A DNA stretch of 60,263 nt, the filler included. It is 7 parts of 7 records of this genome, joined end to end, with 100 filler letters (N's around TTAATTAATTAA, not from the genome) between each part and the next. Parts side by side here need not be neighbours in the genome. Positions count along the whole stretch, not along the records: positions 15,179 to 22,830 come from SRR31156797_19718; 6 more parts are not named here. One strand, 5' to 3'. This document shows, piece after piece, positions 4,654 to 53,694 of the stretch. The notes below the pieces were generated by a model, which did not search any database, was not told where the DNA came from, and was given only the letters and a program-made list of their open reading frames with translations. The position numbers were made by a program, and so were the translations under genes. Position 1 is the stretch's first letter; every line of letters begins with the position of its first letter.

Positions 4654-5610
4654 TTATTCCTTCCCTGATAAAGCAAAGTGTGCCAGCAGACATTCCAGTT
4701 GTATTCTTTCATTGGCACCTTCCGTAAGCCTGAAATCAATTTCCCCGATGACATCTATCAGTTCAACCATCTTTCTCTCAGATATATCAAGATCAAACAT
4801 TGCCCTGTATATCTGCCCCACTACATCCTCACCGGAGAGACCCTGTTCAAGCAGCAGAATGTCGAGGTGCTTTCTGGCAGCACTGAAGTTTCCTTCAAGG
4901 GCGGTTTCGATAAGCTCCTTTACCTGCTCAGGACGTGCTGTTGCAGTGATCTTGTATATGGCATCCTTGTGAATTGTATCTGAAGTGAGTGCTGCAGCCT
5001 GAAGGGCATTTATTGCCTTTCTCATATCACCCTGCGCAATGTACTTGATGGCATCCACACCATCGTCTGCAATGTCCAGTCCTTCATTAGTTGCCACAAA
5101 ACGAACGCGTTCTGCCACAGATTCATCAGAAAGTGCACGGAACCTGTAAACCGCACATCTTGATTGGATAGGCTCGATTATCTTGGATGAGTAGTTGCAT
5201 GAAAGGATGAAGCGACAATTGTTGGTATAGCGCTCCATTGTACGCCTGAGGGCAGATTGGGCATCTGAAGTCAGAGCATCAGCCTCATCAAGGAATATTA
5301 TCTTAAAATCTGCACCACCGATGGGAGTGGTCTTGGCGAAGTTCTTTATCTTGGTCCTTACAACATCGATACCACGTTCATCAGATGCATTAAGCTCTGT
5401 GAAGTTCTCACGCCATGAATCCTCGAAAAGCTCACGTGCGATCGAAACGGAAGTAGCTGTTTTTCCTACTCCGGGAGGACCTGAGAACAGAAGATGTGGA
5501 AGGTTTCTCGTCTTAATATACGACTTCAGCCTTTCTACGGCCTCTTTCTGACCCACTACATCATCGAGTTTAAAGGGCCTATACTTTTCAATCCATATCT
5601 CTTCTTTAAT
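4654..5610 (-). CDS. rfcS: Replication factor C small subunit
   Basis: WIEKYRP, GPPGVGKT, ELNASDERG, LDEADALT, SRC and GDMR motifs. Start uncertain (ATT 5610 or TTG 5646). Confidence 0.96.
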   Translation of the reverse strand: MKEEIWIEKYRPFKLDDVVGQKEAVERLKSYIKTRNLPHLLFSGPPGVGKTATSVSIARELFEDSWRENFTELNASDERGIDVVRTKIKNFAKTTPIGGADFKIIFLDEADALTSDAQSALRRTMERYTNNCRFILSCNYSSKIIEPIQSRCAVYRFRALSDESVAERVRFVATNEGLDIADDGVDAIKYIAQGDMRKAINALQAAALTSDTIHKDAIYKITATARPEQVKELIETALEGNFSAARKHLDILLLEQGLSGEDVVGQIYRAMFDLDISERKMVELIDVIGEIDFRLTEGANERIQLECLLAHFALSGKE

Positions 5611-5662
5611 TTCAAACCCTCCGCATAGAAGTATGCATACCTGCAATAATAGGCAGATGTAG

Positions 5663-5832: not shown

Positions 5833-5932
5833 NNNNNNNNNNNNNNNNNNNNNNNNNNNNNNNNNNNNNNNNNNNNTTAATTAATTAANNNNNNNNNNNN
5901 NNNNNNNNNNNNNNNNNNNNNNNNNNNNNNNN
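5833..5932. other. Artificial contig linker
   Basis: N44-TTAATTAATTAA-N44, stops in all six frames. Confidence 0.99.
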
Positions 5933-14681: not shown

Positions 14682-15078
14682 GGGGCTGACCGGTTTTGAC
14701 AGCAAGGAAGTGGTATAGTAAGCATGCCGGGCATTGGGAATGTGGCTCGTTAATAACTATTCCTAAAGCCATAACTGGCAACACAAATTATGCTCTCGCA
14801 GCGTAATCGAAGTATAGTAGATTACAGCTTAATCCCAACTCAAGGAGTTCGGGACGAGACTCTCCGCAGGCGGACATGCCTTGTTCCTGCCTGATAACGG
14901 GGTGACGCAAAACAGGGCTAGTCAGATGCAGGCTTCGGGCATCTGGCGAAACTTAAGAAGCTAAGGTTCAGGTTGGGTGTTTGTCCTCTGCCTGCTCCCG
15001 ACAATTAATGGCAAAATAAGCATGTAGAAAGCTCTATTGCTGCTTGTTTGGACCAGGGTTCGACTCCCTGCAGCTCCA
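14682..15078 (+). ncRNA. ssrA: tmRNA; tag (A)GNTNYALAA encoded at 14777-14806
   Basis: 5' GGGGCTGACCGGTTTTGAC; 3' T-arm and acceptor GGACCAGGGTTCGACTCCCTGCAGCTCCA; ATAACT precedes the resume codon; tag ends YALAA*. Confidence 0.97.
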
Positions 15079-15178
15079 NNNNNNNNNNNNNNNNNNNNNN
15101 NNNNNNNNNNNNNNNNNNNNNNTTAATTAATTAANNNNNNNNNNNNNNNNNNNNNNNNNNNNNNNNNNNNNNNNNNNN
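15079..15178. other. Artificial contig linker
   Basis: N-run with TTAATTAATTAA. Confidence 0.99.
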
Positions 15179-15710
15179 AATCCTGCATAAACCACTCTTC
15201 TTTAACAATTTCACCTTTATTTTTAAGCTCTTCAATAAAATGCTTTCTTCCAATTCCTCCGAGGATCTTTCCATCAGCTGGCGGAGTCAGATAACCATCT
15301 TCAGTTTTCACAAAAACATTGGTATAACTTCCCTCAAGAACAAAACCTGTCCTTTTTTCAATTAGAATGATCTCTTCACCAGCATTTTCAGTGTGTGATC
15401 TATGTGGCCAAACTTTTTTATCACCCTGGGGAAGATCAATTTCTTTGAGTTTTAAACTAAGTGGTTTTGCAAGATCAGCAAAAGGCTCTAAAGTTGTTTC
15501 AAGAGCACCATCTTCATGAAGAATTATCCTCAGTCGCGCGTCTTTAAGATTATTGTTTTCTAGAGCAACTTTCACAACGTCAACAACAGTTTTTTCATCC
15601 ATCTTAACTTTAAAAAAGTCCGCTCCATTTAGAATTCTCTCAACATGATCGTCAAGCCAAATGGCCTTAAAGTTATCAATTCTTAAAGTTGTAAAGAGCG
15701 CCTTACTCAA
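15179..15710 (-). CDS. pabC: Aminotransferase class IV / aminodeoxychorismate lyase, 3' truncated
   Basis: LFTTLR, HVERI, VLEGSYTNVF, LTPP...ILGGIGR; overlaps the pabB stop. Confidence 0.75.
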
Positions 15711-17016
15711 ATTTTATCTCCACATCATCAAAAATGTTCAAAAAAGCCCTTAATTTGACCAGAGTTTCTTCAAATTCCATTTGCGGATCGCTTTTCCAGG
15801 TTATTCCGCCACCAGTTGAATAGATGAGAGTGTCACCAACTCTCTGAACTGTCCTAATCGGTATATTAAACGTGGCTTTACCGTTCAGTCCGCAAAAACC
15901 GATCGCTCCCGTATAAATATTTCTTCTGTATTTTTCGAGATCTCCGATAATCCGCATCGCACTTTCTTTTGGTGCACCTGTGATCGAACCCCCGGGAAAA
16001 ATTGATCTAAAAAGTTCTGCTCTCCTTGATTTATCTATCTCACCAGTTACGGAAGAATAAAGATGAAAAAGAGTTGGAAACTCCATGATGCGTGCATGGA
16101 AATCAACATTAACAGAACCAGGTTGGGCGATCTTTCCAATATCGTTCCTCACAAGATCAACAATCATTGCAAGTTCAGCACGGTCTTTCTCACTGTTCTC
16201 AAGTTCATTTTTCAGTCTTGAATTTTCAGCTTCTTCATCAACTTTCTTGATCGTCCCTTTTATGGGAAAACTACTGACTTTATTAAAGTTATCGAATTTG
16301 AGCAGACACTCCGGAGAAATGGAAAGAACCTCAACATTTTCACTGTTAAAATACACAGCATAATCAACATGATTTTTTGAAAGATAACGATCAAAAAGAA
16401 TCCATGAAGGAGTCTTTGTGTTAATTTTGACAGGATATGTAAAACTTATCTGATAAACATCGCCCTCTCCTATCAGTCTCCTGATCTCATCAATTGATCT
16501 TAGATAACTATCTTTTGAGATCAGCGCATTAGCTTCAACCCTTTCTTCGCTTGATCCAGTTTCAGGAACCAGCCGATCTAATTCTTTGATATATTCTTCA
16601 ATTCTTTCATCCATCGGAGTTTTTGAAAAATCCGCGTCAATAACAACAAGCTCAGCAACCATTTTTTGATTATCAACAACCAGAAAACTGTCGCTATAAA
16701 CAAAGAAGTGATCAGGAATTTCAATTCCATCAGGAGATTGTTCATTCCCAAAGTTATTCATAAACTCATAGCTGAAAAATCCCGAAAAAACAGGAAGAGG
16801 AAACTCCGTTTCAGCCATTTCATCATAGTTGAAGATCTTCTCAACAACATCACCTTCAACAATTCCAACCGGATTAAGAACAACAATAGAATATCTGCCA
16901 TGAGAATCATCCAGACCGCTGCTATAAAATAGTATCCTGTTCTTCACCCGCGAAGTCAGATAACTAAGCTTTTTAAGGTTGGGAACTGTCTTAAGCTCCA
17001 ATCTTTTAATATCCAA
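15703..17016 (-). CDS. pabB: Aminodeoxychorismate synthase component I (chorismate-binding)
   Basis: GDVYQ, SISPE, PIKGT, EKDRAELAMIVDLVRND, FPGGSITGAPK; TTG start after GGAGG. Confidence 0.88.
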   Translation of the reverse strand: MDIKRLELKTVPNLKKLSYLTSRVKNRILFYSSGLDDSHGRYSIVVLNPVGIVEGDVVEKIFNYDEMAETEFPLPVFSGFFSYEFMNNFGNEQSPDGIEIPDHFFVYSDSFLVVDNQKMVAELVVIDADFSKTPMDERIEEYIKELDRLVPETGSSEERVEANALISKDSYLRSIDEIRRLIGEGDVYQISFTYPVKINTKTPSWILFDRYLSKNHVDYAVYFNSENVEVLSISPECLLKFDNFNKVSSFPIKGTIKKVDEEAENSRLKNELENSEKDRAELAMIVDLVRNDIGKIAQPGSVNVDFHARIMEFPTLFHLYSSVTGEIDKSRRAELFRSIFPGGSITGAPKESAMRIIGDLEKYRRNIYTGAIGFCGLNGKATFNIPIRTVQRVGDTLIYSTGGGITWKSDPQMEFEETLVKLRAFLNIFDDVEIKFE

Positions 17017-17151
17017 ATTGCGCCTCCTTGATCTGAGGCAAGAATATCAGATTTAAGATGTTTTGCAATTGAACTGAGAATATTTGACAAACCTCATTTT
17101 ATAATACTAAACTCCCCTTGTAGGTGGTTATTAAAATCAATGGAGGATAAT

Positions 17152-18072
17152 ATGAAAAAAGTTTTGCTCGCAACTGTTAAACCCTTTGCTCCAAAGGCAG
17201 TTGTTGAAATTGAAAAGATCTTTGGTGATGCTGGTTATGAACTTGTTAAACTTGAATCTTATGGTGATGTAAGTGAGTTTAAAGAAGCAGTAAAAGATGC
17301 CCAGGGACTTATTATTAGAAGTGATAAAGTTACAAAAGAAATTATTGATGGTGCTCAGCAGCTTAAAATAGTTATCAGAGGCGGAGCCGGTTACGACAAT
17401 GTTGACTGTGCTGCAGCAACTGAAAAAGGCGTTACAGTTATGAATACTCCTGGTCAGAATTCTAATGCAGTTGCTGAACTTGCAATGGGAATGGCAGTTT
17501 ACGCTGCAAGAAACCTTTACAACCCAAAAGCAGGTACAGAGCTTCTTGGCAAAAAGATCGGAATACACGCTTACGGAAACGTTGGAAAACACGTTGCAAG
17601 AATAGCAAAAGGTTTTGGAATGGAAGTTTATGCTTTTGATCCTTTTATTGAAAGATCATCGATCGAAGCAGATGGTGTTAAAGCAGTTGACAGCGCTGAA
17701 GAACTTTACTCAATTTGCAATTACATCTCTTTACATATTCCTGCAAATGACAAAACAAAGAAGTCTATCCATAAAAAACTTCTCGCTTCAATGCCACAAG
17801 GCGCAACTGTGATCAATACAGCAAGAAAAGAAGTAGTTTGCGAAGATGGTCTTAAAATGGTTCTTGCTTCAAGACCTGATTTCAAATACCTCTCAGACAT
17901 TGCTCCGGTTACTGCTGAAGAACTTGAGAAAGAGTTCGCTGGACAGGTTTTCTTCACACCGAAAAAGATGGGAGCACAGACAAAAGAAGCAAATATCAAT
18001 GCTGCAAAAGCTGCTGCGACTCAGATCGTAGATTTCTTTGAAAAAGGCGACATAACTTTTAAAGTTAATTAG
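17152..18072 (+). CDS. serA: D-3-phosphoglycerate dehydrogenase-like protein (short form, Lys-type active site)
   Basis: IRGGAGYDNVD, NTPGQNSNAVAE, INTARKE, TPKKMGAQT; GGAGG precedes ATG 17152. Confidence 0.8.
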   Translation: MKKVLLATVKPFAPKAVVEIEKIFGDAGYELVKLESYGDVSEFKEAVKDAQGLIIRSDKVTKEIIDGAQQLKIVIRGGAGYDNVDCAAATEKGVTVMNTPGQNSNAVAELAMGMAVYAARNLYNPKAGTELLGKKIGIHAYGNVGKHVARIAKGFGMEVYAFDPFIERSSIEADGVKAVDSAEELYSICNYISLHIPANDKTKKSIHKKLLASMPQGATVINTARKEVVCEDGLKMVLASRPDFKYLSDIAPVTAEELEKEFAGQVFFTPKKMGAQTKEANINAAKAAATQIVDFFEKGDITFKVN

Positions 18073-18218
18073 TCAGACCAAAAATCCCCTTAAATTTCAT
18101 AATATTACCAGAATCCTTTAAAAACATTTAAATACGTGCAAATTTACGAATCAGGTCGCAATCATACTTGATAATGATATAATGACCCTGTTGTGTTGTA
18201 ACTTTCAAGGAGGAACTT

Positions 18219-19397
18219 ATGAGACCTGTACTTATTTTCGTATTGATCATTCTTTTTGCATTTGTCAGTTGCGACAATGGATCAGTAAAAAACAATCATC
18301 CTGATGATCTTGGAAATTCAGGAATGGACGAAGAGGATACTGAGGACAACCAGGACGAAGAGAACATTGAGGACGTGGAGATTGAGGACGAAGTGGACGA
18401 AGAGGACGAAGTGGACGATGTGGACATGGACGAAGAAAACGGGGTAGATGATAAGGACATAGGGAATACTGGAGACACTGGGAACACTGGAGACACAGAT
18501 GATACGGGAAATACTGGAAATTCAGGTGTTGATCCAACGGCGATCTTTCAGCTTGGGCCCCATTTTGTTCTTACAAATGAATATGAAAAAGGCGATAACG
18601 GTGCTCCAAGGGATTTTAAGATCTATGAACCTCAGGGAGCAACAGGAAATGTGCCTGTTATCCATTTTCAACATGGGTTTCAGCTAAAGTTCAATTACTA
18701 TGATGATGTTCTTGTTCAACTTGCTTCACATGGGTTTGTTGTTGTTTCAAGTCAATCTGCTCACAGCATGATCGGCGGAGATACAACGCCTGTTGAAGCA
18801 GGGAAAGTCGCTGAATTCATTACTTGGATGAAAACAGATCTACCTGCAAGGATTGCTGTTACTGCAGATCTTAGTAAATTTGGAGTTTCCGGGCACAGTA
18901 GAGGTGGAAAAGTTACGAACCATATGCTCAATGCAAATTCTTCACTTGCAGTTAGTTTTTTCGGACTTGATCCGGTTGATTCTTCCCCGCCAACAGGTGG
19001 AGATCCTCATAGTCTAGAAAACCCTGTACTCTTCACTGGAAAATCAATGTTCCTGGGAGCGGAAAAAGGTCCTAACGGATTTCAGGCATGCGCTCCTGCC
19101 GGAGAGAATTCAGTTGCATTTTATGCTGGCTACCCTTCTCCTTCATGGCATATTATTGCCGCCGGAGTCGGTCACATGGATATGATAGATGAGCCTGACC
19201 TTTCTGTTTGTGGAATGACTTGCTCTCTTTGCGAAGGAAGTGATGACAACACTCTTAACGCTTCTTTTCGAACTTACAGCGGCGCAATGATGGCTGCATT
19301 TTTCTCATACACTCTTAAAGACATAACAGAATACCAACCGCTCCTTTCAAACACTGCCGACCATCCATTTCTAAACACTCTTGCTGAAAGTAAATAA
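18219..19397 (+). CDS. Lipoprotein with acidic/GNTGDT linker and a chlorophyllase-family alpha/beta hydrolase domain
   Basis: Lipobox FVSC; FQHGF, LASHGFVVV, GHSRGGK, LDPVD, CAP, GHMDMID. Confidence 0.8.
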   Translation: MRPVLIFVLIILFAFVSCDNGSVKNNHPDDLGNSGMDEEDTEDNQDEENIEDVEIEDEVDEEDEVDDVDMDEENGVDDKDIGNTGDTGNTGDTDDTGNTGNSGVDPTAIFQLGPHFVLTNEYEKGDNGAPRDFKIYEPQGATGNVPVIHFQHGFQLKFNYYDDVLVQLASHGFVVVSSQSAHSMIGGDTTPVEAGKVAEFITWMKTDLPARIAVTADLSKFGVSGHSRGGKVTNHMLNANSSLAVSFFGLDPVDSSPPTGGDPHSLENPVLFTGKSMFLGAEKGPNGFQACAPAGENSVAFYAGYPSPSWHIIAAGVGHMDMIDEPDLSVCGMTCSLCEGSDDNTLNASFRTYSGAMMAAFFSYTLKDITEYQPLLSNTADHPFLNTLAESK

Positions 19398-19410
19398 TCA
19401 AAAAATCATC

Positions 19411-19438
19411 TTGCAAATTAAAAAAACTCTGATATAAA
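19411..19438 (+). promoter_or_regulatory. Sigma70-type promoter upstream of the RNA motif
   Basis: TTGCAA-16 nt-TATAAA with an extended -10 TG. Confidence 0.55.
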
Positions 19439-19451
19439 TCTCATCAAATAG

Positions 19452-19543
19452 CTCCGAGCTCAGGTTCCTAAAGCTAACGCAATGGATAATGAGCCGATAG
19501 GGCCGTTTCTGAAAAGATGCGACCTCCCACCTTTGGAAAGGAG
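19452..19543 (+). promoter_or_regulatory. Moco RNA motif riboswitch (P3-less, Tuco-like)
   Basis: CTCCGAGC...CCTAA...ATGG...AGGG..GAAA tetraloop hairpin..CCTCCCACCTTTGGAAAGGAG. P1 (CTCC/GGAG) sequesters a Shine-Dalgarno sequence. Confidence 0.8.
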
Positions 19544-19548
19544 AGTAA

Positions 19549-19605
19549 ATGCGACAATACTATCATATTATCTTTTCACTTAAACTATACAAAAAGGAGA
19601 ACTAA
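19549..19605 (+). CDS. Putative 18-aa leader ORF MRQYYHIIFSLKLYKKEN
   Basis: ATG lies 5 nt after the riboswitch GGAG; its TAA directly abuts the pruA ATG. Confidence 0.45.
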   Translation: MRQYYHIIFSLKLYKKEN

Positions 19606-21234
19606 ATGAGTAATGGAATTTTTTCTGTACCTGTACCAAAAAACGAGCCGGTACTTGATCACGCGCCGGGATCAAAGGAAAGAGAACTTCTTGAAAAAGA
19701 GCTTAAAAGACAATCAGAAATAAAGGTCGAGGTCCCTGTAATAATTGGCGGAATGGAGATCGAAACAAGAAAAACGATAAACATAACCTGTCCCCATGAT
19801 CATAAACATATCCTTGGAACATGCCATCTTGCAGGAGAGAATGAAGTTAATTTAGCAATTGAAACTGCAATGAAAGCTCAGGAAAAATGGGAATCGATGC
19901 CCTGGCCAGACCGTGCAGCGATCTTTTTAAAAGCTGCTGAACTTATCTCAACTAAATACCGATATATTCTCAATGCAGCGACCATGCTTAATCAGTCAAA
20001 AAGTGCATACCAGGCTGAGATAGATAGCTCATGTGAAATTGCAGATTTCTTGAGATTCAACGTCCACTATATGCAGCAGATCTACTCCCAGCAACCAATC
20101 AGAAATTCTAAAGGAATGTGGAATAGACTTCAGTACAGAGCACTTGAAGGCTTCGTTTTTGCTGTAACACCCTTTAACTTTACGGCAATTGCTGGAAACC
20201 TGCCTACAGCACCTGCTATGATGGGAAATGTGGTTCTTTGGAAACCTGCTTCGACTTCAATTCTTTCAAATTACTACCTGATGCAGCTTTTTAAAGAGGC
20301 AGGGCTGCCTGATGGTGTTCTCAACTTCATTCCGGGGCGTGGTAGTGAGGTTGGAGATCCTGTTGTTGCAAGCAAGCATTTTGCAGGTCTTCATTTCACC
20401 GGCTCTACCGGAACTTTCAATAGATTATGGCAAAATATCGCAGACAATATCAGCAACTATCGCACATATCCAAAGATCGTAGGCGAAACAGGTGGTAAAG
20501 ATTTTATCGTGGTTCATAAATCGGCTGAGCCTTTGGAAGTTGCTGTTGCAGCAATTCGCGGAGCATTTGAATATCAGGGCCAAAAATGCAGTGCCGCATC
20601 AAGAATGTATGCTCCTTCTAATCTATGGCCGGAAATATCCAAAAAAATGAAAACCATGTTAAAAAAGATCCGGGTTGGAGATGTTAAAGATCTTGGTAAT
20701 TTTATGAACGCGGTTATTGATGAGAATAGTTTTGATAATATAATGAGCTACATAAAAACTGTTAAGAACTCTGATAAAGCTGAGATATTTTTTGGGGGTG
20801 AAGGTGACAAGACCAATGGATATTTTGTTGATCCTACAGTTGTTGTAACTAAAGACCCCAATTTTGTTACAATGGAAAATGAGATCTTCGGTCCCGTTCT
20901 AACTGTCTATATTTATGATTGTGAAAAGTTTGATGAAGTTCTCGAGCTTTGTGACAACACTTCTCCCTATGCTTTGACGGGAGCGATCTTTGCAAAAGAA
21001 CGTGAAGTGATCATAAAAGCTGAACAGAAATTAAAAAATTGTGCAGGAAATTTCTATATTAATGATAAACCTACTGGAGCTGTTGTTGGTCAACAGCCTT
21101 TTGGAGGAGCAAGAGGAAGCGGAACGAACGACAAGGCTGGCTCAGTATTTAACCTTCTACGCTGGACAAGCCCAAGGACTATTAAAGAAACTTTTTGCCC
21201 AGCAAAAGACTATAAATATCCATTCATGAATTAG
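19606..21234 (+). CDS. pruA: 1-pyrroline-5-carboxylate dehydrogenase (ALDH4)
   Basis: PKNEPV, AEIDSSCEIADFLRFN, TPFNFTAI, FTGST, GETGGKDF, EYQGQKCSA, GQQPFGG. Confidence 0.96.
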   Translation: MSNGIFSVPVPKNEPVLDHAPGSKERELLEKELKRQSEIKVEVPVIIGGMEIETRKTINITCPHDHKHILGTCHLAGENEVNLAIETAMKAQEKWESMPWPDRAAIFLKAAELISTKYRYILNAATMLNQSKSAYQAEIDSSCEIADFLRFNVHYMQQIYSQQPIRNSKGMWNRLQYRALEGFVFAVTPFNFTAIAGNLPTAPAMMGNVVLWKPASTSILSNYYLMQLFKEAGLPDGVLNFIPGRGSEVGDPVVASKHFAGLHFTGSTGTFNRLWQNIADNISNYRTYPKIVGETGGKDFIVVHKSAEPLEVAVAAIRGAFEYQGQKCSAASRMYAPSNLWPEISKKMKTMLKKIRVGDVKDLGNFMNAVIDENSFDNIMSYIKTVKNSDKAEIFFGGEGDKTNGYFVDPTVVVTKDPNFVTMENEIFGPVLTVYIYDCEKFDEVLELCDNTSPYALTGAIFAKEREVIIKAEQKLKNCAGNFYINDKPTGAVVGQQPFGGARGSGTNDKAGSVFNLLRWTSPRTIKETFCPAKDYKYPFMN

Positions 21235-21314
21235 CTTAGAAATAACTTTTAATAGCGTTCAATTAATGATAATATCTGTGGAATATCCACGTGTGTTTTT
21301 CGGAGGAAAACTTT

Positions 21315-22830
21315 ATGAAGGGACTTTTTATTATTCTTGTTTCTATTTTATTGTTTGTTTCTTGTGATAGCGATCTTAAAGAGTATGAGAATGGATTCGC
21401 TGATAAGGATATCGTTGATGAACTTGACGACACAACTATAGACGATGTTGTTGAAGACAATGATATTGTTGAAACTGACAATGAAGAAACAGATGACATT
21501 GTTGAACCTGATGAGGTAGAAGAAGTTGATGATACTGAAGAAACTGATGATTCAGAAAATGGCGACATTGATGAGTTCATTTGTGATGACGGTGAAAAAG
21601 AAGCTTGTTACTCCGGTGATGATACCACTAGAGGTGTCGGTGCATGTACAGACGGTGAGAAAACATGTGTTGACGGTGTTTGGGGAAAATGTAAGGACGA
21701 TGTTAAGCCGACAGACGAACTTTGCGACAACATTGATAATGACTGTGACGGTTCTATTGATGAAGAACTTTTTGAAATGAACTCTGAAAATTGTCTTACC
21801 GATGGTGTTTGCGGTCTTGAAGCAGCAACAGTCGAAGCAATATGTTCAAAAGGCGACTGGGTTTGTAACTACTCAGAAGTTGATGGATACCAGGGAAAAG
21901 ACGAGATCACCTGTGACGGCATTGATAATGACTGTGATGGCGAGATTGACGAAGGTTTTGCAGACAGCGACAGCGATGGCGTGCCGGATTGTCTTGACAA
22001 CTGCGTGCTTGATGACACTGCTAACCAGACAGATAGTGATGGTGACGGGTTTGGTGATCCTTGCGACAACTGTGTGAATGACTCTAATGCAGATCAGCTT
22101 GATACAGATAAAGATGGACTTGGTGACATTTGTGACAACTGTCCAAATGCCTTTGACTCCACATTTAAAGATAGTGACAGTGATGGTGTAGGCGATGTTT
22201 GTGACAACTGCCCTCTTCATGCAAATACAGATCAGGCTGATGAGAATGGAAACAACATTGGAAATGCCTGTGAAGATAATGATGGAGATTCTATTCCTAA
22301 TGTTACTGATAACTGTCCAGAAGCTTACAACCCTGATCAGAAAGACTCTGATACAGACATGGTTGGAGATATCTGCGACAACTGCGTTCAGGCAATAAAT
22401 ACTGATCAGGCTGATTCAGATGAAGATGGTATTGGAGATGCCTGTGACGATGAGGATAAAGATAGCGACACAATTCTTGATTACGAAGACAACTGTCCTG
22501 ATGTCGCTAATGAGCTTCAGGAAGATGGCGATGGCGATGGAGTTGGTGATGTCTGTGACAACTGTGTAGATGACGCTAATCCTGATCAGAAAGATACTGA
22601 TCTAGATGGCAAAGGTGATGTTTGTGACCTTGATGATACAGATGAGGATACTGTTATTGATCTTGAAGATAACTGTCCAAACGATCCAAATGAACTTCAG
22701 GAAGATGTTGACGGTGATGGAGTTGGTGATGTCTGTGACAACTGTCCTGATGATGCTAACCCTGATCAGGAAAACATCTGTGGAGATACTGACGGCGACA
22801 CAATCCTTGATCCTGTCGACAACTGTCCTC
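21315..22830 (+). CDS. Acidic Ca-binding lipoprotein with MopE-like (DNDCDGxIDE) and thrombospondin type 3 repeats, 3' truncated
   Basis: Lipobox FVSC, two CDxIDNDCDG motifs, and many DxDxDGxGDxCDNC repeats. Confidence 0.88.
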
Positions 22831-22930
22831 NNNNNNNNNNNNNNNNNNNNNNNNNNNNNNNNNNNNNNNNNNNNTTAATTAATTAANNNNNNNNNNNNNN
22901 NNNNNNNNNNNNNNNNNNNNNNNNNNNNNN
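22831..22930. other. Artificial contig linker
   Basis: N-run with TTAATTAATTAA. Confidence 0.99.
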
Positions 22931-31665: not shown

Positions 31666-31765
31666 NNNNNNNNNNNNNNNNNNNNNNNNNNNNNNNNNNN
31701 NNNNNNNNNTTAATTAATTAANNNNNNNNNNNNNNNNNNNNNNNNNNNNNNNNNNNNNNNNNNNN
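31666..31765. other. Artificial contig linker
   Basis: N-run with TTAATTAATTAA. Confidence 0.99.
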
Positions 31766-31825: not shown

Positions 31826-31874
31826 AAAGCCACGAAGGCCGAACCTTTTTTGTTCGGTATTCGTGGCTTTTTTT
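31826..31874 (+). terminator. Leader terminator/attenuator upstream of the FmdE-TonB receptor operon
   Basis: AAAGCCACGAA..CCGAAC-loop-GTTCGG..TTCGTGGCTTT plus a T-tract, about 25 nt before the first gene. Confidence 0.75.
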
Positions 31875-31898
31875 ATGGAGAAGGAAAGGAGACTGGAA

Positions 31899-33044
31899 TT
31901 GAAAAAGAGCAAAAAATGTATGGAGAAAATCGGATATTCGAAAACGGCAACTCTTCTGTGGCTTCTGGGGGCCTGCCTGCTAATCCTGATGGTGAAAACA
32001 AGTTATGCCGAAATTACCGATTCCGGGTATGAAAAGTGGAAAATGGTCGGAAAACGGTCAGGGGAAGAGGCCCTCGCTTTGATGAAGCAACGCGGGACCG
32101 TCCTGAAAAAAAAGGATCTGGTGGCTCTGACGAATGCCGGATATGCTGAAGTGAACGGGACCTCCACCCAAGGCGCTCTGGACGGATTTGGCTCTGCAAC
32201 GGGGGTGAGCAGGGGCAGAAATACCCTTGTGGAAATTCATCAAGGACCCTGGATACCTCTTTGGTTCGCAGTATACGACCGCCGTTCCGGTCTATGCGCC
32301 TATTTGCAGATGGATCCTTCCGATATCCGGAAAGGATCGGAAATTTCAGTTATACCCCTGTCGGAACTCTTTTCCATCGTGGTCCTGGAGAGAATCAATG
32401 CCGAATATCTTTATGAACATGCCGCGGCGTTTGAGAAAAAACTCGCCCGAAAAGTGTTCGGAGGCAACGAATTTCGCATTGTCGCCATTGCCAACGCCAT
32501 AGGGGAGGGTGCCCCCCCTTATGCGGTCAGGGTTTTCGAGTTCCACGATCACTTCTGCCCCGGCGTCAGCTCCGGCATCCTCATGTCCAATTATCTGAAA
32601 AAACATTTTCCACCGGAACCGGGCGGTCGATACTTCATACACGCGGTGGAACCCTGGTGCAAGGAAGACGCCTTGCTGGTCCTTTTAAACGCAACGCCGG
32701 GAAAGCGCTGCTACGCCGCTTACCACCCCACAAAAGCGGATAAGGAAAGGCTGGTTCCCTCGGCAAAAAATGCATCCGCCATCGTTTATCGAAAAAACAA
32801 GGCCGCAAAAACATGGGAAGGATTGGTTCTCGCATTCGAATGGCCCGAAACCGGATGTCCCAAAAGTAAAAGCTGGTTTATCGACAAGCTTTGCGAAGAT
32901 CTCTGGTATTTGAAACGCCTGGAAAAACCCGAGGATTTCGTGAAGGTGGTCAAGGCCTTTAAACTTTCCAAAGGTGTCTCGCCTAAGGATTGGGCGAGAC
33001 CCGGAATCGACCCCTTAAAAAAACTGGGATTGTTGAAGGAATAA
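31899..33044 (+). CDS. Exported FmdE/FwdE-family metal-binding protein
   Basis: FHDHFCPGVSSG and PWCKEDA...TPGK motifs; N-terminal hydrophobic signal ending SYA-E. Start 31899 (TTG after AGGAG) or 31920. Confidence 0.82.
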   Translation: MKKSKKCMEKIGYSKTATLLWLLGACLLILMVKTSYAEITDSGYEKWKMVGKRSGEEALALMKQRGTVLKKKDLVALTNAGYAEVNGTSTQGALDGFGSATGVSRGRNTLVEIHQGPWIPLWFAVYDRRSGLCAYLQMDPSDIRKGSEISVIPLSELFSIVVLERINAEYLYEHAAAFEKKLARKVFGGNEFRIVAIANAIGEGAPPYAVRVFEFHDHFCPGVSSGILMSNYLKKHFPPEPGGRYFIHAVEPWCKEDALLVLLNATPGKRCYAAYHPTKADKERLVPSAKNASAIVYRKNKAAKTWEGLVLAFEWPETGCPKSKSWFIDKLCEDLWYLKRLEKPEDFVKVVKAFKLSKGVSPKDWARPGIDPLKKLGLLKE

Positions 33045-33094
33045 TTTTCACCAAAACGGGCACTTATCGATTTGTTTAACAAAGGAGGAAAGGT

Positions 33095-35179
33095 ATGAAG
33101 AAATTGTTTGGCATTGTTTTTTGCGTTTTTGTTGTTTTCGGGTGGCTCACCCCTTGCACCATTTCATTTGCCCATGAGAAAGAACGGGAATCGGAGAGCA
33201 CCAAGACCGGACAGGCGGAAAAGTCTGTGGATCTGGAGGAGATGGTGGTAACCGCCAATCGATATGAAACGCCCATCGAAAATATTCCCGCCAGCGTAAC
33301 CGTCATCACAAGAGAACAGATAGCGGAAGCCAGCGGTTTGAGGGTGGACCATATTTTGAGGAAATATGCGGGTCTGGATGTAACGCGAACATCCTTTTTA
33401 TCCCACAGCGCAAACGTGGTTCTGCGGGGCATGGGTGAAATGCCGGGAAGGACGTTGATCCTTTATGACGGCATGCCCATGAACAAGGCCGATACCGGTA
33501 CCACCAACTGGGACCTCTTCCAACCCGAGGACATCGAGAGGATCGAGATCGTCAGGGGGCCGGCATCCGTGCTTTACGGTTCAAACGCCATGGGCGGGGT
33601 GATCAACATCATTTCCAGAAAGGTGGATCACAAACCCATCGGTTTCAATGCCAGGGGCATGTACGGTACATTCAACACCTGGGATGCCGGTGCAACCTTG
33701 ACGGGTGAAGTGGACAATTTCGGCTATTACGTCTCTTTTGATCATCTGGCGAGCGATGGGTACAACCCCGTGCCCGAAGGAGAGCGCTCCCCATACGATG
33801 TTAAAAGAGACCTTCGGGAAGACCACCTGAGGACCCAATTCACCTACGAATTTGAAAACGCCTCAAAGATCAGTCTGGGCTATCTTTTCTACGACGACAA
33901 AAGGGGGGAGGGGACTAAAATCCGCCACGATGACGGTGTCTATCGCAAATGGAAAACCAACAATTTTAACATGGCCTATGACTGGGCCATGGGGTTTTCA
34001 AACTGGGTGATCAAGGCCTATTACAACAAGGAGGACTATTTCTGGAATCGGGAGAGTCTGAGAAGGGGTAAATACACCTTGTATGAAGTGGATGTGGATA
34101 GGGTGGATGCCGGGGGGACCCTGCAGAGCACCATCCCGATCCTGGATTGGAATCTGCTCACCGCCGGCTTTGATTACCGGTTCGGCAGCGTTGACGGCGG
34201 CGACACCGACGTTATTCGCAATAACAAACCGAGCAACAAAAAGGTCCACAACGAAGGAAAACAGCACACCTATTCTCTTTTTTTGAACGACCAGATAACC
34301 ATCGGGGAGCGTGTAACCGTGGATGCGGGCCTCCGCTACGATTATGTCAAGAGCGTTGACGGTAAATTTTCCGATTCCAGCGGCTTTCTTCCAGACCGCG
34401 AATACCCAGACAAAAGTTGGGATCATTTGACCCCCAGGGCCGGCGCTATTTTCCGGATCACCGACGATACGTCCATACGCGGTTCCATCGGAACCGCGTT
34501 TCGGGCGCCCATCCTGGACGATTTGTACCGGAACGGCATATTTCGGGGAAGAATCTACGCGGCCAATCCGGACCTGGGACCGGAAAAAACCATCTCATAT
34601 GAGGCGGGGCTGAATCACAGTTTTACGCAAGGCTTTTCCTGCGGCCTTTCCGGCTATTTTACCCGGGGCGACGACTTTTTTTATCCCATCAAGATCGGCA
34701 TCGATCCCGATACCGGTCGAGACCTGTATCAGCGGCAGAATGTGGGCAAAGTCAACATATACGGCGTTGAGGTGGAGGCCAATTGGACCATCAACGAGAT
34801 GTTTGCGCTGTTCGGGAATTACACCTTCAATGTATCCAAAATCGATGAGTTCAGCCAAAGGCCGGGGTTGGAAGGGAAGTATCTGATGGATTCTCCCCGG
34901 AATAAGGCCAATATGGGGGTTACTTTTTATCATCCCGATATTTTCAGGGCCGAGTTGGTGGGAAGATATGTGGGCAATCGGTATGGGGACGACGAAAACA
35001 CATCAGAATACGAACTGGATGATTACGTTGTCTTTGACGTCAAGTTCATGCGTGGCTTCACCCGGTATTGTGAAGCCTATGTGGATATTGTGAATATCTT
35101 TAATAAAAAGATTCTGTACGCTTCCGATTACGAAGGCCCCGGGATCGAGATCCGCGCCGGCGTGACCGTCAGATTTTAG
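33095..35179 (+). CDS. TonB-dependent receptor (BtuB/CirA-like)
   Basis: EMVVTANR TonB box, IERIEIVRGPASVLYGSNAMGGVINII plug, NPDLGPE, terminal Phe. Confidence 0.95.
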   Translation: MKKLFGIVFCVFVVFGWLTPCTISFAHEKERESESTKTGQAEKSVDLEEMVVTANRYETPIENIPASVTVITREQIAEASGLRVDHILRKYAGLDVTRTSFLSHSANVVLRGMGEMPGRTLILYDGMPMNKADTGTTNWDLFQPEDIERIEIVRGPASVLYGSNAMGGVINIISRKVDHKPIGFNARGMYGTFNTWDAGATLTGEVDNFGYYVSFDHLASDGYNPVPEGERSPYDVKRDLREDHLRTQFTYEFENASKISLGYLFYDDKRGEGTKIRHDDGVYRKWKTNNFNMAYDWAMGFSNWVIKAYYNKEDYFWNRESLRRGKYTLYEVDVDRVDAGGTLQSTIPILDWNLLTAGFDYRFGSVDGGDTDVIRNNKPSNKKVHNEGKQHTYSLFLNDQITIGERVTVDAGLRYDYVKSVDGKFSDSSGFLPDREYPDKSWDHLTPRAGAIFRITDDTSIRGSIGTAFRAPILDDLYRNGIFRGRIYAANPDLGPEKTISYEAGLNHSFTQGFSCGLSGYFTRGDDFFYPIKIGIDPDTGRDLYQRQNVGKVNIYGVEVEANWTINEMFALFGNYTFNVSKIDEFSQRPGLEGKYLMDSPRNKANMGVTFYHPDIFRAELVGRYVGNRYGDDENTSEYELDDYVVFDVKFMRGFTRYCEAYVDIVNIFNKKILYASDYEGPGIEIRAGVTVRF

Positions 35180-39247: not shown

Positions 39248-39745
39248 TTAAGAAGCGCAATCCGATGGATCCCCACCCAGTTTTGCAAGGGCGTGACTTA
39301 ATGCCGGTAATACCACCGATAGATTTTCGGCGGCCCCTTTCGGGCTCCCCGGAAGGTTAATGATAAGCGATGCTTTCCGGACACCGACCATGGCCCTCGA
39401 AATCATGGCATGGGCGGTTTTTTTCAGGCTTTCAGCGCGCATTGCCTCGGCCATACCGGGTACCGGGTAATCAATCACACGCTCCATGGCCTGGGGTGTC
39501 ACATCCGTGGGGCTTAGACCGGTGCCCCCGGATGTGACGATGAGGGGAAGATTGTCTTCATCCACCCAGGCCATGAGGGTGTCCGCAATTTCCTGAAGCC
39601 GGTCCGGAATGATGTGTCTTCGAACTACCGATAATCCTTGTTCTTCCAGCATGCGCTGGACGGTGTTCCCACTTTCATCATCCCTTAGGCCGGCGGCCCC
39701 CTTGGTGCTGATGGTGAGAACGCCTGCCTTGATTCCGCTTTCCAT
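39248..39745 (-). CDS. mog: Molybdopterin adenylyltransferase (MogA/MoaB)
   Basis: LTIS...RDDESG, TSGGTG.SPTDVTP, SRA, NLPGSPKG. Confidence 0.9.
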   Translation of the reverse strand: MESGIKAGVLTISTKGAAGLRDDESGNTVQRMLEEQGLSVVRRHIIPDRLQEIADTLMAWVDEDNLPLIVTSGGTGLSPTDVTPQAMERVIDYPVPGMAEAMRAESLKKTAHAMISRAMVGVRKASLIINLPGSPKGAAENLSVVLPALSHALAKLGGDPSDCAS

Positions 39746-39758
39746 TGTCGTGTGCCTT

Positions 39759-41837
39759 TTACTCTTCAACCCGGGCTGCGGCGATGACCTTTTCCGCCAG
39801 CTGGCTTGGCAGTTCTTCGTAATGGGATTGTTCCATCACAAATGTTCCCCGGCCGCCGGTAATGGAATTGAGGTCCAAGGCGTATCTCAGAACTTCGGAC
39901 ATGGGAACCTGCGCCATGATGACCTGGTATTTTCCCTTGGCGTCCATACCCAGCACCTTGCCGCGACGGCCGTTGAGATCGCCCATGACATCCCCCATGA
40001 CTTCCTCGGGAACGGTGATTTCCATTTTCATGATGGGTTCAAGCAGGATGGGATTGGCGCCCTCCATGGCCTTTTTCAGGCACATCCGGGCGGCGATTTT
40101 GAAGGCCATTTCAGAGGAGTCCACGTCATGGCTTTTGCCGTCGTAAAATCGGACCTTCAGGTCCACCACCGGGTAACCTGCGACCGCCCCGCTGTCGAGG
40201 GACTCCACAAGACCTTTTTCCACGGCGGGAACAAAATTTCGGGGAACGTTCATTCCGGTTAAGTCTTCCATGAACTCAAATCCCGAGTCCAGTTTCAGCG
40301 GCATGACATCGAAATGGACTTCCGCAAACTGTCCCCTGCCGCCCGACTGTTTTTTGTGACGGTAGACAACGCCCTTGACGGATTTTTTGATGGTCTCCCG
40401 GTAGGGTACTTTCACCGGGTTCAGGTTCACTTCCACGCCGAATTTTCGATTCAGCTTTTCGCATGCAATTTCCAGATGGATCTGTCCCGTGCCGGACAGA
40501 ATGACTTCGCCCGTGGATTGATCCCGGCCCAGTTTGAGGGTGGGATCCTCTTCCAGAAGTTTGGCAAATGAGGTAAAGACTTTATCTTCACTCCCCTTGA
40601 CCTTGGCCACCACCGCGTACGAGATAACCGACGGCAATCCTTCGGTGGGTTTGTAAATGATGGGATCGGCGGCGGAACAGAGGGTATCGCCCGTGACGGT
40701 TTCCTTGAGTTTGGCCATGGCAACAATATCTCCGGGGCCGGCCGCTTCAATGGGTTGCTGTTTTTTTCCTTCAAGGATCAGGAGTTGACCGATCTTTTCC
40801 TTGGCATCTTTGGTGGCGTTGTACACGGTGGAATCTGAGGAAAGGGTTCCGGAGAAAATTCTGGCCAGGGTCAGCTTACCGGCAAAGGGGTCTGCAACGG
40901 TTTTAAAGACAAGGGCTGAAAAAGGCGCGTCCACGGCGGGTGGCCTCTCCGTTTCTTCGTCGGTACCCGGGACGGTCCCTTTCCTGGGGGGCCTTTCAAC
41001 AGGGGATGGAAATCCGTCCACTATCAGGTCCATCAGTTGGGGGACGCCCATATTGAGCACTGCGGAACCGCATAAAACAGGTGTGACCAAGCCGGATTTA
41101 ATGCCCTGTATCAGGGTTTTTTCAATTTCCTTATGGGAAAGTTCTTCTCCTTCAAGGTATTTTTCCATGAGATCATCATCGACTTCCACCACGTTCTCAA
41201 TCATGATTTCGCGCCATTCATCGGCTGTGTCTTTCAAGTCTTCCGGAATGTCGGTGGTTTCAAAGGTGCCGCTACCGTCTTTGTTGTAATGATAGGCTTT
41301 TTGCTTGACAAGGTCCACAATGCCCGAAAAGTTGTCTTCTTCCCCGATGGGGATGGACACGGGAGTCGTCTTGATTTCAAATGTCTGGCTGACGGCTTCC
41401 AATGTTTGGAAAAAATCGGCTCGTTCACGGTCCATTCTGTTGATGAAAACAATCTTGGGAAGTTCCTGTTCTTCGGCAAAGGCCCAGACCTTCTCGGTTC
41501 CGACCTTTACGCCTGCCGTGGCGTCAATTAAGACCACTGAACCGTCAGCGGCCTGCAGGGAAAATTTGGCATCGGAAAGGAAATTATCGTCTCCCGGCGT
41601 GTCGATAATATTGATGGCGTGTTTTTTCCAGGTGCAGTGGTGAAATGCGGTGGTCAGGGTCGATTTTCGCTTGATTTCTTCCGGTTCAACATCCAGGTTG
41701 GAGGAGCCGTCATCCACTTTGCAAAGCCGGGTTGTGGCTTTCCCATTAAACAGCATTGCTTCCGCCAGAGATGTTTTTCCTGAGCCCCCATGTGCGATGA
41801 GAGCAGCATTCCTCAATTGTTCAGCCTTTTTTTCCAT
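39759..41837 (-). CDS. fusA: Elongation factor G paralog (EF-G2 type)
   Basis: AHGGSGKT, DTPG, EEDPTL, HKKQSGGRGQF, SHDVDSSEMAFKIA, LLEPIM; divergent switch motifs. Confidence 0.93.
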   Translation of the reverse strand: MEKKAEQLRNAALIAHGGSGKTSLAEAMLFNGKATTRLCKVDDGSSNLDVEPEEIKRKSTLTTAFHHCTWKKHAINIIDTPGDDNFLSDAKFSLQAADGSVVLIDATAGVKVGTEKVWAFAEEQELPKIVFINRMDRERADFFQTLEAVSQTFEIKTTPVSIPIGEEDNFSGIVDLVKQKAYHYNKDGSGTFETTDIPEDLKDTADEWREIMIENVVEVDDDLMEKYLEGEELSHKEIEKTLIQGIKSGLVTPVLCGSAVLNMGVPQLMDLIVDGFPSPVERPPRKGTVPGTDEETERPPAVDAPFSALVFKTVADPFAGKLTLARIFSGTLSSDSTVYNATKDAKEKIGQLLILEGKKQQPIEAAGPGDIVAMAKLKETVTGDTLCSAADPIIYKPTEGLPSVISYAVVAKVKGSEDKVFTSFAKLLEEDPTLKLGRDQSTGEVILSGTGQIHLEIACEKLNRKFGVEVNLNPVKVPYRETIKKSVKGVVYRHKKQSGGRGQFAEVHFDVMPLKLDSGFEFMEDLTGMNVPRNFVPAVEKGLVESLDSGAVAGYPVVDLKVRFYDGKSHDVDSSEMAFKIAARMCLKKAMEGANPILLEPIMKMEITVPEEVMGDVMGDLNGRRGKVLGMDAKGKYQVIMAQVPMSEVLRYALDLNSITGGRGTFVMEQSHYEELPSQLAEKVIAAARVEE

Positions 41838-45944: not shown

Positions 45945-46044
45945 NNNNNNNNNNNNNNNNNNNNNNNNNNNNNNNNNNNNNNNNNNNNTTAATTAATTAA
46001 NNNNNNNNNNNNNNNNNNNNNNNNNNNNNNNNNNNNNNNNNNNN
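45945..46044. other. Artificial contig linker
   Basis: N-run with TTAATTAATTAA. Confidence 0.99.
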
Positions 46045-47338: not shown

Positions 47339-48535
47339 ATGAATAAAATTGACATGGGAACTGTCTCATTAGTTCTGATACTGATACAGCTGCTCTTTGC
47401 ACTGGGATTTGCTGTAGCTTCTGTAAATGATAAACATAAATATATGAGGAAACAAACTCTGGGAATAGTTCTGAATGCACTGGGATTGATTTTGTTAATC
47501 TTATATAGAGAAGAGCTGTTTTTCGGAGTCTATTTAGGAAACTCACTGCTTCTTGCCGGTTATGTATTTTTTATACATGGTGTATTTGAACTTATTGATG
47601 TATTATCAAATCGAAAATTTTTTCTATTCGCAACATTTTTACATTTAACTATATACTTTTATTTTGTTTATATAACGAATAATATTTCTGCAAGAATATT
47701 TATCTTTAGCGTAGAAGCGGGACTTATGTCGATCTATTTTGGCATGAAGATTTTAAGCTATTTTTTCAAAAGAAAATATCCCACTTTACTTTTACTGGCA
47801 ATTAACTCATTTATATATGGAGGATTTCATTTTTTTAGAGGTTTAAGTGTACTTTTTGTTAATATAGACAGCTTACAGGTAAATCAGTATTATATGAAAA
47901 CTACTTTTATATTAGCAATTGCATTTAATATAATACTCTATTTATCAGTGATATTATTAGCTACAAAACTAGCTCTGTCTAAACTGATCGAAACAAATGA
48001 AAATTTAGAGGAGTTAGCTACAATTGATTATCTAACAAGAGCACATAATTCGAGATCTGTTATTCACCATTTTGAAGTTGAACTGGAAAAAGTAAGAAGG
48101 TATAACAGAGTGATGTCAGCTGCAATTATCGATATTGATTATTTCAAAAAGGTTAATGATATCTATGGACATCTTGTTGGTGATGAAGTTCTGGTAGAAA
48201 TAAGTAAAATATTTAATGATTCTTTGAAAAAAACAGATATATTCGGACGATATGGTGGAGAGGAATTTTTGATAATTATGCCAGATACGCCACTTGAGAA
48301 AGCTCAATTCAGAGTAGAGTTAGTTCAAACTGTGTTAAAAAATCATAATTGGGAATATGAAAATCTATCGGTAACATTTAGCGCAGGAGTGATTGAAGTA
48401 AATGAAACTCATAGAAAAAAAGAGGTGAAAGAACTTCTTGAAGATGCAGATAAACTACTTTATCAAGCTAAACATAATGGTCGAGATAGAGTGGAGATAG
48501 ATTTCGAAGAAGATGAGTATAGTTTAGATTATTAA
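47339..48535 (+). CDS. Multi-TM diguanylate cyclase 1
   Basis: About 7 hydrophobic helices, DYLT, DIDYFK, RYGGEEF. Confidence 0.93.
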   Translation: MNKIDMGTVSLVLILIQLLFALGFAVASVNDKHKYMRKQTLGIVLNALGLILLILYREELFFGVYLGNSLLLAGYVFFIHGVFELIDVLSNRKFFLFATFLHLTIYFYFVYITNNISARIFIFSVEAGLMSIYFGMKILSYFFKRKYPTLLLLAINSFIYGGFHFFRGLSVLFVNIDSLQVNQYYMKTTFILAIAFNIILYLSVILLATKLALSKLIETNENLEELATIDYLTRAHNSRSVIHHFEVELEKVRRYNRVMSAAIIDIDYFKKVNDIYGHLVGDEVLVEISKIFNDSLKKTDIFGRYGGEEFLIIMPDTPLEKAQFRVELVQTVLKNHNWEYENLSVTFSAGVIEVNETHRKKEVKELLEDADKLLYQAKHNGRDRVEIDFEEDEYSLDY

Positions 48536-48609
48536 GTTTGATTTTTGGTGAAACTATATAAATTTATATAAGCTCTTTTTATATAGGGAAAATAAGGGGA
48601 TATACTTCT

Positions 48610-49779: not shown

Positions 49780-49813
49780 TTTTAATATTAACTAGTTGAA
49801 GGGGTGGTTAAGT

Positions 49814-51029: not shown

Positions 51030-51059
51030 AGAAAGAAAAGTTCAAACATAAAACATATT

Positions 51060-51325
51060 TATCTTGGTGATCGTGTAATTTTTAATTATTTGATCTTAAA
51101 AAGGAAGTCGGTGTGAATCCGATACAGCCCCCACTACTGTGATGCTGACGAAAGCACATATATCCACTGGTTGAGGAAGAATTTTGTTTTAGTTTACTAA
51201 AGTATGCTAAAACAAATCAAAAAAATCTAAAATCTATAGAAAGATTAAGATTTTTTCTTCTTTATAATTTCAACTGGGAAGGACGTGCGAGTAGAATGAA
51301 GCTAGTCAGGAGACTTACCTCGATA
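51060..51325 (+). promoter_or_regulatory. Cobalamin riboswitch
   Basis: GGTG...AAAAGGAAGTCGGTGTGAATCCGATACAGCCCCCACTACTGT...CCACTG...CTGGGAAGG...AGTCAGGAGACTTACC, upstream of cbi genes. Confidence 0.92.
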
Positions 51326-51455
51326 ATGAATAGTAATTTAATTTTCGGGGATGGGAAAATTCATACTTAAATAAAATAAATAGAATTGAGTGTGAGCTCA
51401 GTTTTGTTATATATATAATGCAGTATTTTCTGTAACTGCGTACTTTAAGTATATT

Positions 51456-52966: not shown

Positions 52967-53047
52967 AGAAATTTTAAAACTTTTTAGCTGATTGATAAAA
53001 CGATGCAAGGTTTAAATGTGTTATTAAATAAAGAGAGGAATAAAGCG

Positions 53048-53689: not shown

Positions 53690-53694
53690 TTAAA

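Follow-up and report, generated by a model that had tools for sequence, protein, structure and literature searches.

Within a window of 60,263 nucleotides (nt), the whole stretch of DNA that was analysed, the gene pruA is preceded by a riboswitch of the class that responds to the molybdenum and tungsten cofactors (Moco and Tuco; Rfam RF01055). PruA is an L-glutamate gamma-semialdehyde (pyrroline-5-carboxylate, P5C) dehydrogenase that depends on nicotinamide adenine dinucleotide (NAD). Both the RNA class and the enzyme are already known, and the new element is the regulon link between them. We found the pairing in the window and in 16 further leaders, which come from at least 15 other bacterial genomes. 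We propose that this riboswitch, a form lacking the paired element P3, acts in cis as a ligand-OFF switch on pruA, and that PruA, which needs no such cofactor, would stand in for an aldehyde oxidoreductase that depends on the pterin; we give this reading a probability of about 0.55.

The aptamer and its gene

The entire window was scanned against Rfam 15 with cmscan, which returned three matches at the gathering level. The match to RF01055 lies at 19440-19559 on the plus strand, scores 62.7 bits against a gathering cut-off of 36 (E 1e-12) and spans model positions 1-135, the full length of the model. An earlier reading, made by a model from the sequence alone, had listed hallmarks of the Moco motif at this site (P1, P2, a GAAA-capped P4 and no P3) and had named the Rfam covariance model as a check; the match bears it out, and every element can be found in the cmscan alignment. 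P1 is formed by CUCC (19452-55) and GGAG (19540-43), P2 by GCUCA and UGAGC with the receptor-like bulge CCUAA...AUGG, and P4 is capped by GAAA. The segment CCUCCC...UUUGGAAAGGAG is present, and P5 and the conserved junction nucleotides are in place. The P3 columns are deleted in the alignment, as in the P3-less (“Tuco-type”) subclass. The RNA agrees with the consensus at every upper-case, highly conserved position, and the score ranks among the best of the 70 RF01055 copies examined. This RNA is a genuine, canonical, P3-less member of the Moco/Tuco class. Its end lies 47 nt upstream of the pruA ATG on the same strand, and a module of Shine-Dalgarno (SD) sequence and ATG overlaps its P1.

Co-varying nucleotides, which the sequence-only reading had also suggested as a check, were found as well. 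Across the 17 pruA aptamers, compensatory changes affect 7 of the 12 P4/P5 pairs called by RNAalifold, which argues that the aptamer is under selection.

RF01055 normally precedes genes for molybdenum or tungsten (Mo/W) transport, cofactor synthesis or Mo/W enzymes. The gene downstream here is instead pruA, as had been predicted from the letters. Its product matches the NCBIfam equivalog TIGR01236 at 801.9 bits, above the cut-off of 613.6, with residues 12-541 aligned to positions 1-532 of the 533 in the profile, and it also matches Pfam Aldedh (PF00171). The motifs GETGGK and GQKCSA are visible in the translation, and we take these to be the general-base Glu and catalytic Cys motifs of aldehyde dehydrogenases. 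The window gene encodes an ordinary group 1 P5C dehydrogenase. No close relatives of it were found: the best identity was 62% among genome contigs, 64-65% among metagenome contigs and 60% in a 401-genome sample of Spirochaetota.

Recurrence of the pairing and the wider regulon

Our first survey covered the 80 best PruA relatives in one-genome-per-species contigs, which share 55-62% identity with the window protein and are mostly from Bacteroidota. These loci were screened with a regular expression (regex) for the Moco core, and 19 non-Bacteroidota loci were also scanned with cmscan. The single case among them was a metagenome-assembled genome (MAG) of the Spirochaetaceae, L003, whose P3-less RF01055 (39.5 bits) ends in GGAG, 5 nt and the ATG of pruA. 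We then searched 69 genomes of the Spirochaetota family of L003 with RF01055 and TIGR01236, which gave 68 riboswitch matches in 42 genomes and 44 PruA places in 42 genomes. RF01055 lies directly upstream of pruA, on the same strand, at 15 of the 44 places and in 14 of the 42 PruA-bearing genomes, one genome having two copies. All but one of these 15 riboswitches exceed the gathering cut-off, and the remaining one scores 32.1 bits. The phylum sample of 401 genomes contained 23 with a PruA relative, and one of them, G357, added a further riboswitch-pruA pair (55.8 bits). The association with downstream pruA genes that the sequence-only reading had proposed to survey therefore exists outside the window.

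The negative controls came out blank. None of 20 riboswitch-less pruA loci of the family had any Rfam match at E <= 0.1 within 400 nt upstream (nine more places lay outside this check), and none of 20 pruA loci of the phylum sample had an Rfam match at gathering. Among the best 80 metagenome loci the regex found no Moco core adjacent to pruA; regex negatives are soft, because the expression recovers only 12 of the 16 known pruA leaders.

The genes that flank riboswitch-pruA vary from locus to locus and include histidine kinases, NMT1-like, FecR-like and AzlCD genes, a YjjI-like glycyl-radical enzyme, RF3 and others, and the gene that follows is usually on the opposite strand. Because the flanks vary, the RNA goes with pruA itself. 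We considered and rejected the possibility that the riboswitch is left over from a Mo/W operon that was deleted, since the neighbours are unrelated between loci. This was the scenario that the earlier reading had offered as its own refutation, and the 16 further leaders exclude it.

A maximum-likelihood tree of 93 PruA sequences (IQ-TREE quick mode, LG+G4; built without the partial G064 sequence) requires six changes of the riboswitch trait, at least five of them forced by well-supported branches, and spreads riboswitch-bearing pruA over three or more separate clades. The window protein falls in a clade of 17 rows (SH-aLRT 99) whose other 16 rows are from metagenomes, Bacteroidota, Aminicenantes and Myxococcota, apart from the spirochaete genes. 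The pairing is conserved and has been acquired repeatedly; the varied flanks speak against a relic, and the tree against one inherited event. As a separate observation, the Acido-Lenti-1 RNA (RF01687; L002 2607-2652 and 2737-2782, 48.8 and 52.5 bits) occurs twice, in convergent orientation, upstream of pruA in an Acidobacteriota MAG.

The genes downstream of the remaining 53 RF01055 matches of the family were clustered and named. The P3-containing form precedes a TupA-like binding protein with permease, ATPase and MoeA (20 loci), a YdhY/YdhV/YdhW-like operon with an enzyme of the aldehyde oxidoreductase (AOR) family (10 loci; PRK09849, 1089.7 bits against a cut-off of 868) and operons in which MoeA comes first (2 loci). 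The P3-less form precedes a MalE-like binding protein with an Oxidored_molyb (sulfite-oxidase-fold) protein and a MalF-like permease (17 loci), a MOP-like molybdopterin aldehyde oxidoreductase (1 locus; L100 in G025) and a MocA/DVU_1551-like nucleotidyl transferase (1 locus). The genes at the other two loci were left unassigned. Leaders of MoeA/radical-SAM operons fall on the P3-containing side.

P3 status was taken from model alignments for some leaders and judged by eye for others. P3 is absent in 16 of the 17 pruA leaders (the window, L003, L085, L097, L098 and L173 by alignment, ten more by inspection) and present in that of G028. With the exception of this G028 leader, P3-less and P3-containing forms divide cleanly by gene class in the family. 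According to the founding description (Regulski 2008, PMC2408646), P3-less forms go with tungsten genes, and the sequence-only reading had carried this correlation over. It does not hold in any simple way in the family: the AOR-type and TupA-like leaders carry P3, as does the pruA aptamer of G028, so that the absence of P3 does not tell which metal is involved.

The 17 sulfite-oxidase-fold operons (L101, L103-L105, L107, L108, L110-L112, L114, L115, L117-L119, L123, L133 and L150) encode a MalE-like protein of about 504 amino acids (aa), an Oxidored_molyb protein of about 506 aa and the MalF-like permease. In P5 of their aptamer core, a U-A pair stands in place of C-G, a compensated change (CCUUCC...UGAAAAGG). 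Such an operon is possibly an uptake system for a pterin or cofactor.

Proposed direction of control and competing explanations

The P1 3' GGAG is followed 5-8 nt later by the pruA ATG in 12 of the 17 leaders, and in the commonest leader type the first two letters of that ATG are also taken up in an outer extension of P1, ATGGAT/ATCCAT. The Escherichia coli moaA leader has its ribosome-binding site (RBS) in P1, and cofactor production represses its expression, as reported in Regulski 2008 (PMC2408646). Because this pruA layout is the one tested in moaA, we read these leaders as ligand-OFF translational switches; the riboswitch most likely turns off an aldehyde dehydrogenase that does without the cofactor. 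In the relatives, cofactor binding would close P1 and thereby hide the RBS, since the GGAG of pruA is the 3' strand of P1 in most of them, and pruA would be turned off.

The window leader adds further elements to this plan (Table 1). A promoter-like site can be read ahead of the RNA and would predict a transcript start near 19445, just 5' of P1. The sequence-only reading had likewise placed a promoter here; its TTGCAA-16-TGaTATAAA arrangement is legible, although a consensus promoter scan does not list the site, because the rule of the scan calls for a second hexamer that ends in T. Of the sequencing runs, none of RNA is listed for 19200-20400; a single DNA run, which may be the source, is. 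Beyond P1, the place that pruA's own ATG holds in 12 relatives is occupied by the ATG of a predicted upstream open reading frame (uORF), presumably translated, whose stop (19603-05) directly abuts the pruA ATG (TAA/ATG). The two SD-ATG modules, one at the uORF and one, 57 nt further downstream, at pruA, are near-duplicates (AAAGGAGAGTAAATG and AAAGGAGAACTAAATG).

We hypothesize two routes of control in the window, which may act singly or together. In the first, P1 would mask the SD and ATG of the uORF, and pruA would follow by termination-reinitiation coupling. In the second, closure of P1 would let the pyrimidine run pair with the second SD. In constrained folds, the second SD pairs with a probability of 0.73-0.97 when P1 is enforced versus 0.19-0.76 when the 5' strand of P1 is blocked. 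Because free folds of the leader do not surpass those of shuffled sequence, we only infer these routes. An unconstrained minimum-energy pairing between the 5' strand of P1 and the second SD was set aside as a 4-bp closure of a large loop.

If the leaders work in this way, scarcity of Moco or Tuco would lead to production of the NAD-dependent PruA, and plentiful cofactor would shut pruA off, because a pterin-dependent aldehyde oxidoreductase could then substitute for it. An AOR-family or MOP-type enzyme would then take over the oxidation of glutamate semialdehyde/P5C. AOR-family genes (PF02730) are present in 45 of the 69 family genomes, and in all 14 riboswitch-pruA genomes versus 9 of the 28 other pruA genomes (Fisher p 2.7e-5, kinship ignored). 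One AOR gene is divergent from pruA at a distance of 728 nt (G053, L281 3688-5985), and matches to the AOR N-domain lie 5-13 kb from pruA in G001, G025 and G030; with noisy open reading frame calls in GC-rich loci and related genomes, this synteny in the four genomes is a lead only. The presence of XDH/MOP-family genes was rejected as a discriminator and is uninformative, since they are nearly universal in the family (68/69).

We also consider, more tentatively and with some doubt, that AOR-family or MOP-type enzymes oxidise glutamate gamma-semialdehyde/P5C in these anaerobes as part of an undescribed W/Mo-dependent, ferredoxin-linked route from proline or ornithine to glutamate, with the riboswitch arbitrating between this route and PruA. 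If true, the P3-less branch would constitute a “which aldehyde oxidiser” regulon comprising PruA, the MOP-like oxidoreductase, synthesis of molybdopterin cytosine dinucleotide (MCD) and the pterin-type importer.

Several observations weigh against PruA as a riboswitch-controlled fallback. Among the PruA-bearing family genomes, 28 of 42 have no riboswitch at pruA, and 8 of these 28 carry both RF01055 elsewhere and AOR genes. Among the 160 closest PruA loci, genomic and metagenomic, L003 alone has a riboswitch at pruA (by regex, with cmscan on 19). The presence of AOR tracks any RF01055 (41 of 42 versus 4 of 27 genomes, kinship ignored), and because of this general association and of shared ancestry its co-occurrence with riboswitch-pruA carries little weight. 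The riboswitch of the AOR-type (YdhYVW-like) operon itself contains P3, unlike those of pruA. Only 4 of the 69 family genomes yielded a proline dehydrogenase (PF01619), and 42 of the 69 have PruA, so that PruA in this family mostly goes without its usual partner. Moreover, we identified no enzyme that replaces PruA.

The leaders themselves raise further objections. Those of G023, G049, G050 and G064 have spacers of 85-140 nt with a separate SD; the spacer of G064 holds a CUCCCUCCUUU run that looks like an anti-SD. In the window, the second SD stands 8 nt before the pruA ATG and beyond the aptamer, and free folding of the leader does not beat shuffled controls (z -0.23 and -1.59). Because pruA thus has an SD of its own and the folds do not exceed the shuffles, control of pruA in the window may be weak or lost.

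These points leave the fallback idea, first raised in the sequence-only reading as a cofactor-independent backup, plausible but unproven: the OFF design of the 12 leaders and the AOR genes of all 14 genomes speak for it, and the missing replacement enzyme speaks against it. The analysis shows what the aptamer and the gene are, that their pairing is conserved and that the RBS lies in P1 in most leaders; the direction of control in the window, the enzyme that would replace PruA and the form of the metal that would be sensed are points that we infer.

A rather less probable explanation keeps the repression of pruA and drops the substitution. In this case the catabolism of proline or ornithine to glutamate would be tied to cofactor status for other reasons, such as the supply of glutamate and nitrogen when Mo/W-dependent assimilation or fermentation fails, or redox balancing between NADH and ferredoxin. 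The conserved pairing and the OFF design fit it equally, no enzyme replacing PruA was found, and proline dehydrogenase is absent from 65 of the 69 family genomes. PruA in this family probably draws its substrate from another source, such as ornithine or a route involving the YjjI/YjjW glycyl-radical system. A YjjI-family glycyl-radical enzyme and a YjjW-type activase adjoin pruA in G017 and G030, and probably also in G001, where radical-SAM/Fer4 domains alone were seen. These genes hint at aldehyde formation and, together with nearby AOR genes, may represent an uncharacterised aldehyde-forming pathway. However, no specific Mo/W-dependent route for nitrogen or glutamate was identified, and both the AOR co-occurrence and the AOR gene beside pruA in G053 suit substitution better.

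It is unlikely that the aptamer of the window has been uncoupled from pruA by insertion or duplication of an SD-ATG module, leaving a relic or a regulator of the uORF only. The separate SD of pruA, the near-duplication of the two modules and the unremarkable folds of the leader would all be expected in that event, and a comparable change is seen in relatives: the leaders of G049 and G050 resemble two direct leaders of G051 plus an insertion of about 115 nt between the aptamer and the pruA RBS. However, the window aptamer is intact at all conserved positions and scores 62.7 bits, as would fit selection that still acts on it. The uORF also stops right at the pruA ATG, and the constrained folds predict more pairing of the second SD when P1 is closed. 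The window leader is a fifth variant beside the four long-spacer leaders. The insertion loci are L093 2140-2275 and L094 4597-4735, compared with L095 and L096; the G049 insertion contains a strong hairpin, and the insertions parallel the 57-nt spacer of the window.

Finally, it is very improbable that the pruA aptamers bind another ligand (another pterin, or a metabolite of proline or glutamate), as the earlier reading had suggested in proposing a variant aptamer: the enzyme needs no Mo/W cofactor and the two RNA forms split by gene class as if they sensed different molecules, but the conserved core is canonical at every nucleotide, in the window as in the remaining aptamers of pruA, the G028 leader uses a P3-containing aptamer, and the ordinary P3-less type found at pruA also controls genuine pterin-cofactor genes, those of the MOP-like molybdopterin enzyme (L100) and the MocA-like cofactor transferase.

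Layout of the window and known systems

The window consists of seven contig pieces joined by linkers, and the piece at 15179-22830 alone is physically linked to riboswitch-pruA. Genes on different pieces are therefore physically unlinked. A terminator-like hairpin follows pruA, which suggests that the gene is monocistronic. The Mo-related genes seen in the window are limited to a MogA/MoaB-type gene and an FmdE-domain gene, both off the piece that carries the riboswitch.

Table 1. Features of the window and neighbours of pruA in related genomes.
Feature	Position	Strand	Details
Linkers	5833-5932, 15079-15178, 22831-22930, 31666-31765, 45945-46044, 54842-54941		N44-TTAATTAATTAA-N44
pabC-like fragment and pabB	piece 15179-22830	minus	
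2-hydroxyacid dehydrogenase gene, then chlorophyllase/PETase-like hydrolase gene (18219-19397)	piece 15179-22830		
Promoter-like site	-35 at 19411-16, extended -10 at 19430-38	plus	TTGCAA, 16-nt spacer, TGaTATAAA; read by eye
Predicted uORF, 18 codons	19549-19605	plus	ATG 5 nt past P1 3' GGAG; in frame with pruA
Spacer elements	19569-19598	plus	pyrimidine run AUCUUUUC 19569-76; second SD AAAGGAG 19592-98
pruA, P5C dehydrogenase, NAD-dependent aldehyde dehydrogenase family, 542 aa	19606-21234	plus	TIGR01236, PF00171
Terminator-like hairpin and T-run	21277-21301	plus	consensus match only; sole such site in 19200-21500
Gene for thrombospondin-repeat protein	last on piece 15179-22830, after pruA		truncated by contig end
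FmdE-domain protein adjoining TonB-dependent receptor	31863-35179		same contig piece as MogA/MoaB-type gene
MogA/MoaB-type molybdopterin gene	39248-39769		TIGR00177, 109.4 bits, cut-off 85.35
Archaeal-type replication factor C (RFC) small subunit	4654-5646		piece 1, with an OB-fold protein
Transfer-messenger RNA gene	14682-15078		RF00023, 153.3 bits; reaches contig end; final three model positions inside N linker
GGDEF-domain genes, three tandem paralogues	47339-51004		about 390-400 aa each
Cobalamin riboswitch	51048-51336		RF00174, 74.9 bits; 98-nt insertion
Cobyrinic acid a,c-diamide synthase-like, CbiC and CbiD genes	51632-54792		behind RF00174
YjjI/YjjW-type neighbours of pruA	L086 1-1629; L284 4253-6651; L283 11716-14343		

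Other pieces carry flagellar genes and proteins sorted by the type IX secretion system (T9SS). With the archaeal-type RFC on piece 1 and these genes elsewhere, the bin behind the window may be mixed. The genes behind the cobalamin riboswitch form an ordinary context for that RNA.

The pruA leaders share the fold and the conserved core of RF01055 and of the E. coli moaABCDE leader, and the P3-less subclass is itself described in the founding text (PMC2408646). As in moaA, the RBS of 12 pruA leaders occupies the 3' strand of P1. The pruA leaders differ from known RF01055 leaders in that they precede the gene of an NAD-dependent aldehyde dehydrogenase without a Mo/W cofactor, and the window leader differs further from moaA in its uORF and second SD. 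Unlike the forms described in Regulski 2008, the P3-less forms of this family do not accompany AOR or Tup-like genes. In at least one bacterial family, whether P3 is there is no simple guide to Mo versus W genes. The text of that 2008 paper (PMC2408646) contains no occurrence of proline or pyrroline and no Spirochaetes in its lists. Our full-text searches, with subscription-only papers and supplements outside their reach, found no paper that connects the Moco riboswitch with pruA, with P5C dehydrogenase or with Spirochaetes. The “PruA” of the Agrobacterium pterin literature appears to be an unrelated protein.

On the side of the enzyme, the window PruA resembles the group 1 P5C dehydrogenases (PruA/RocA/ALDH4A1, TIGR01236) in its full-length match and its catalytic motifs. 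In other bacteria pruA is regulated by proteins, such as PutA/PutR or RocR-type regulators. What would set the present case apart is control by a riboswitch, in a spirochaete family mostly without proline dehydrogenase.

Riboswitch regulons serve to infer both ligands and gene functions, and read in this way the pairing points to a possible, unrecognised pterin-dependent oxidation of glutamate semialdehyde in anaerobes. Cobalamin riboswitches precede B12-independent isozymes, namely metE and class I/III ribonucleotide reductases. The proposed control of pruA resembles the B12 riboswitches on metE in that a cofactor-sensing OFF switch would repress a cofactor-independent enzyme. It differs in the RNA class and in the cofactor, and the cofactor-dependent counterpart of PruA is hypothetical. 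The pairing would carry the logic of repressing a cofactor-independent isozyme over from B12, so far its main known case, to the pterin cofactors.

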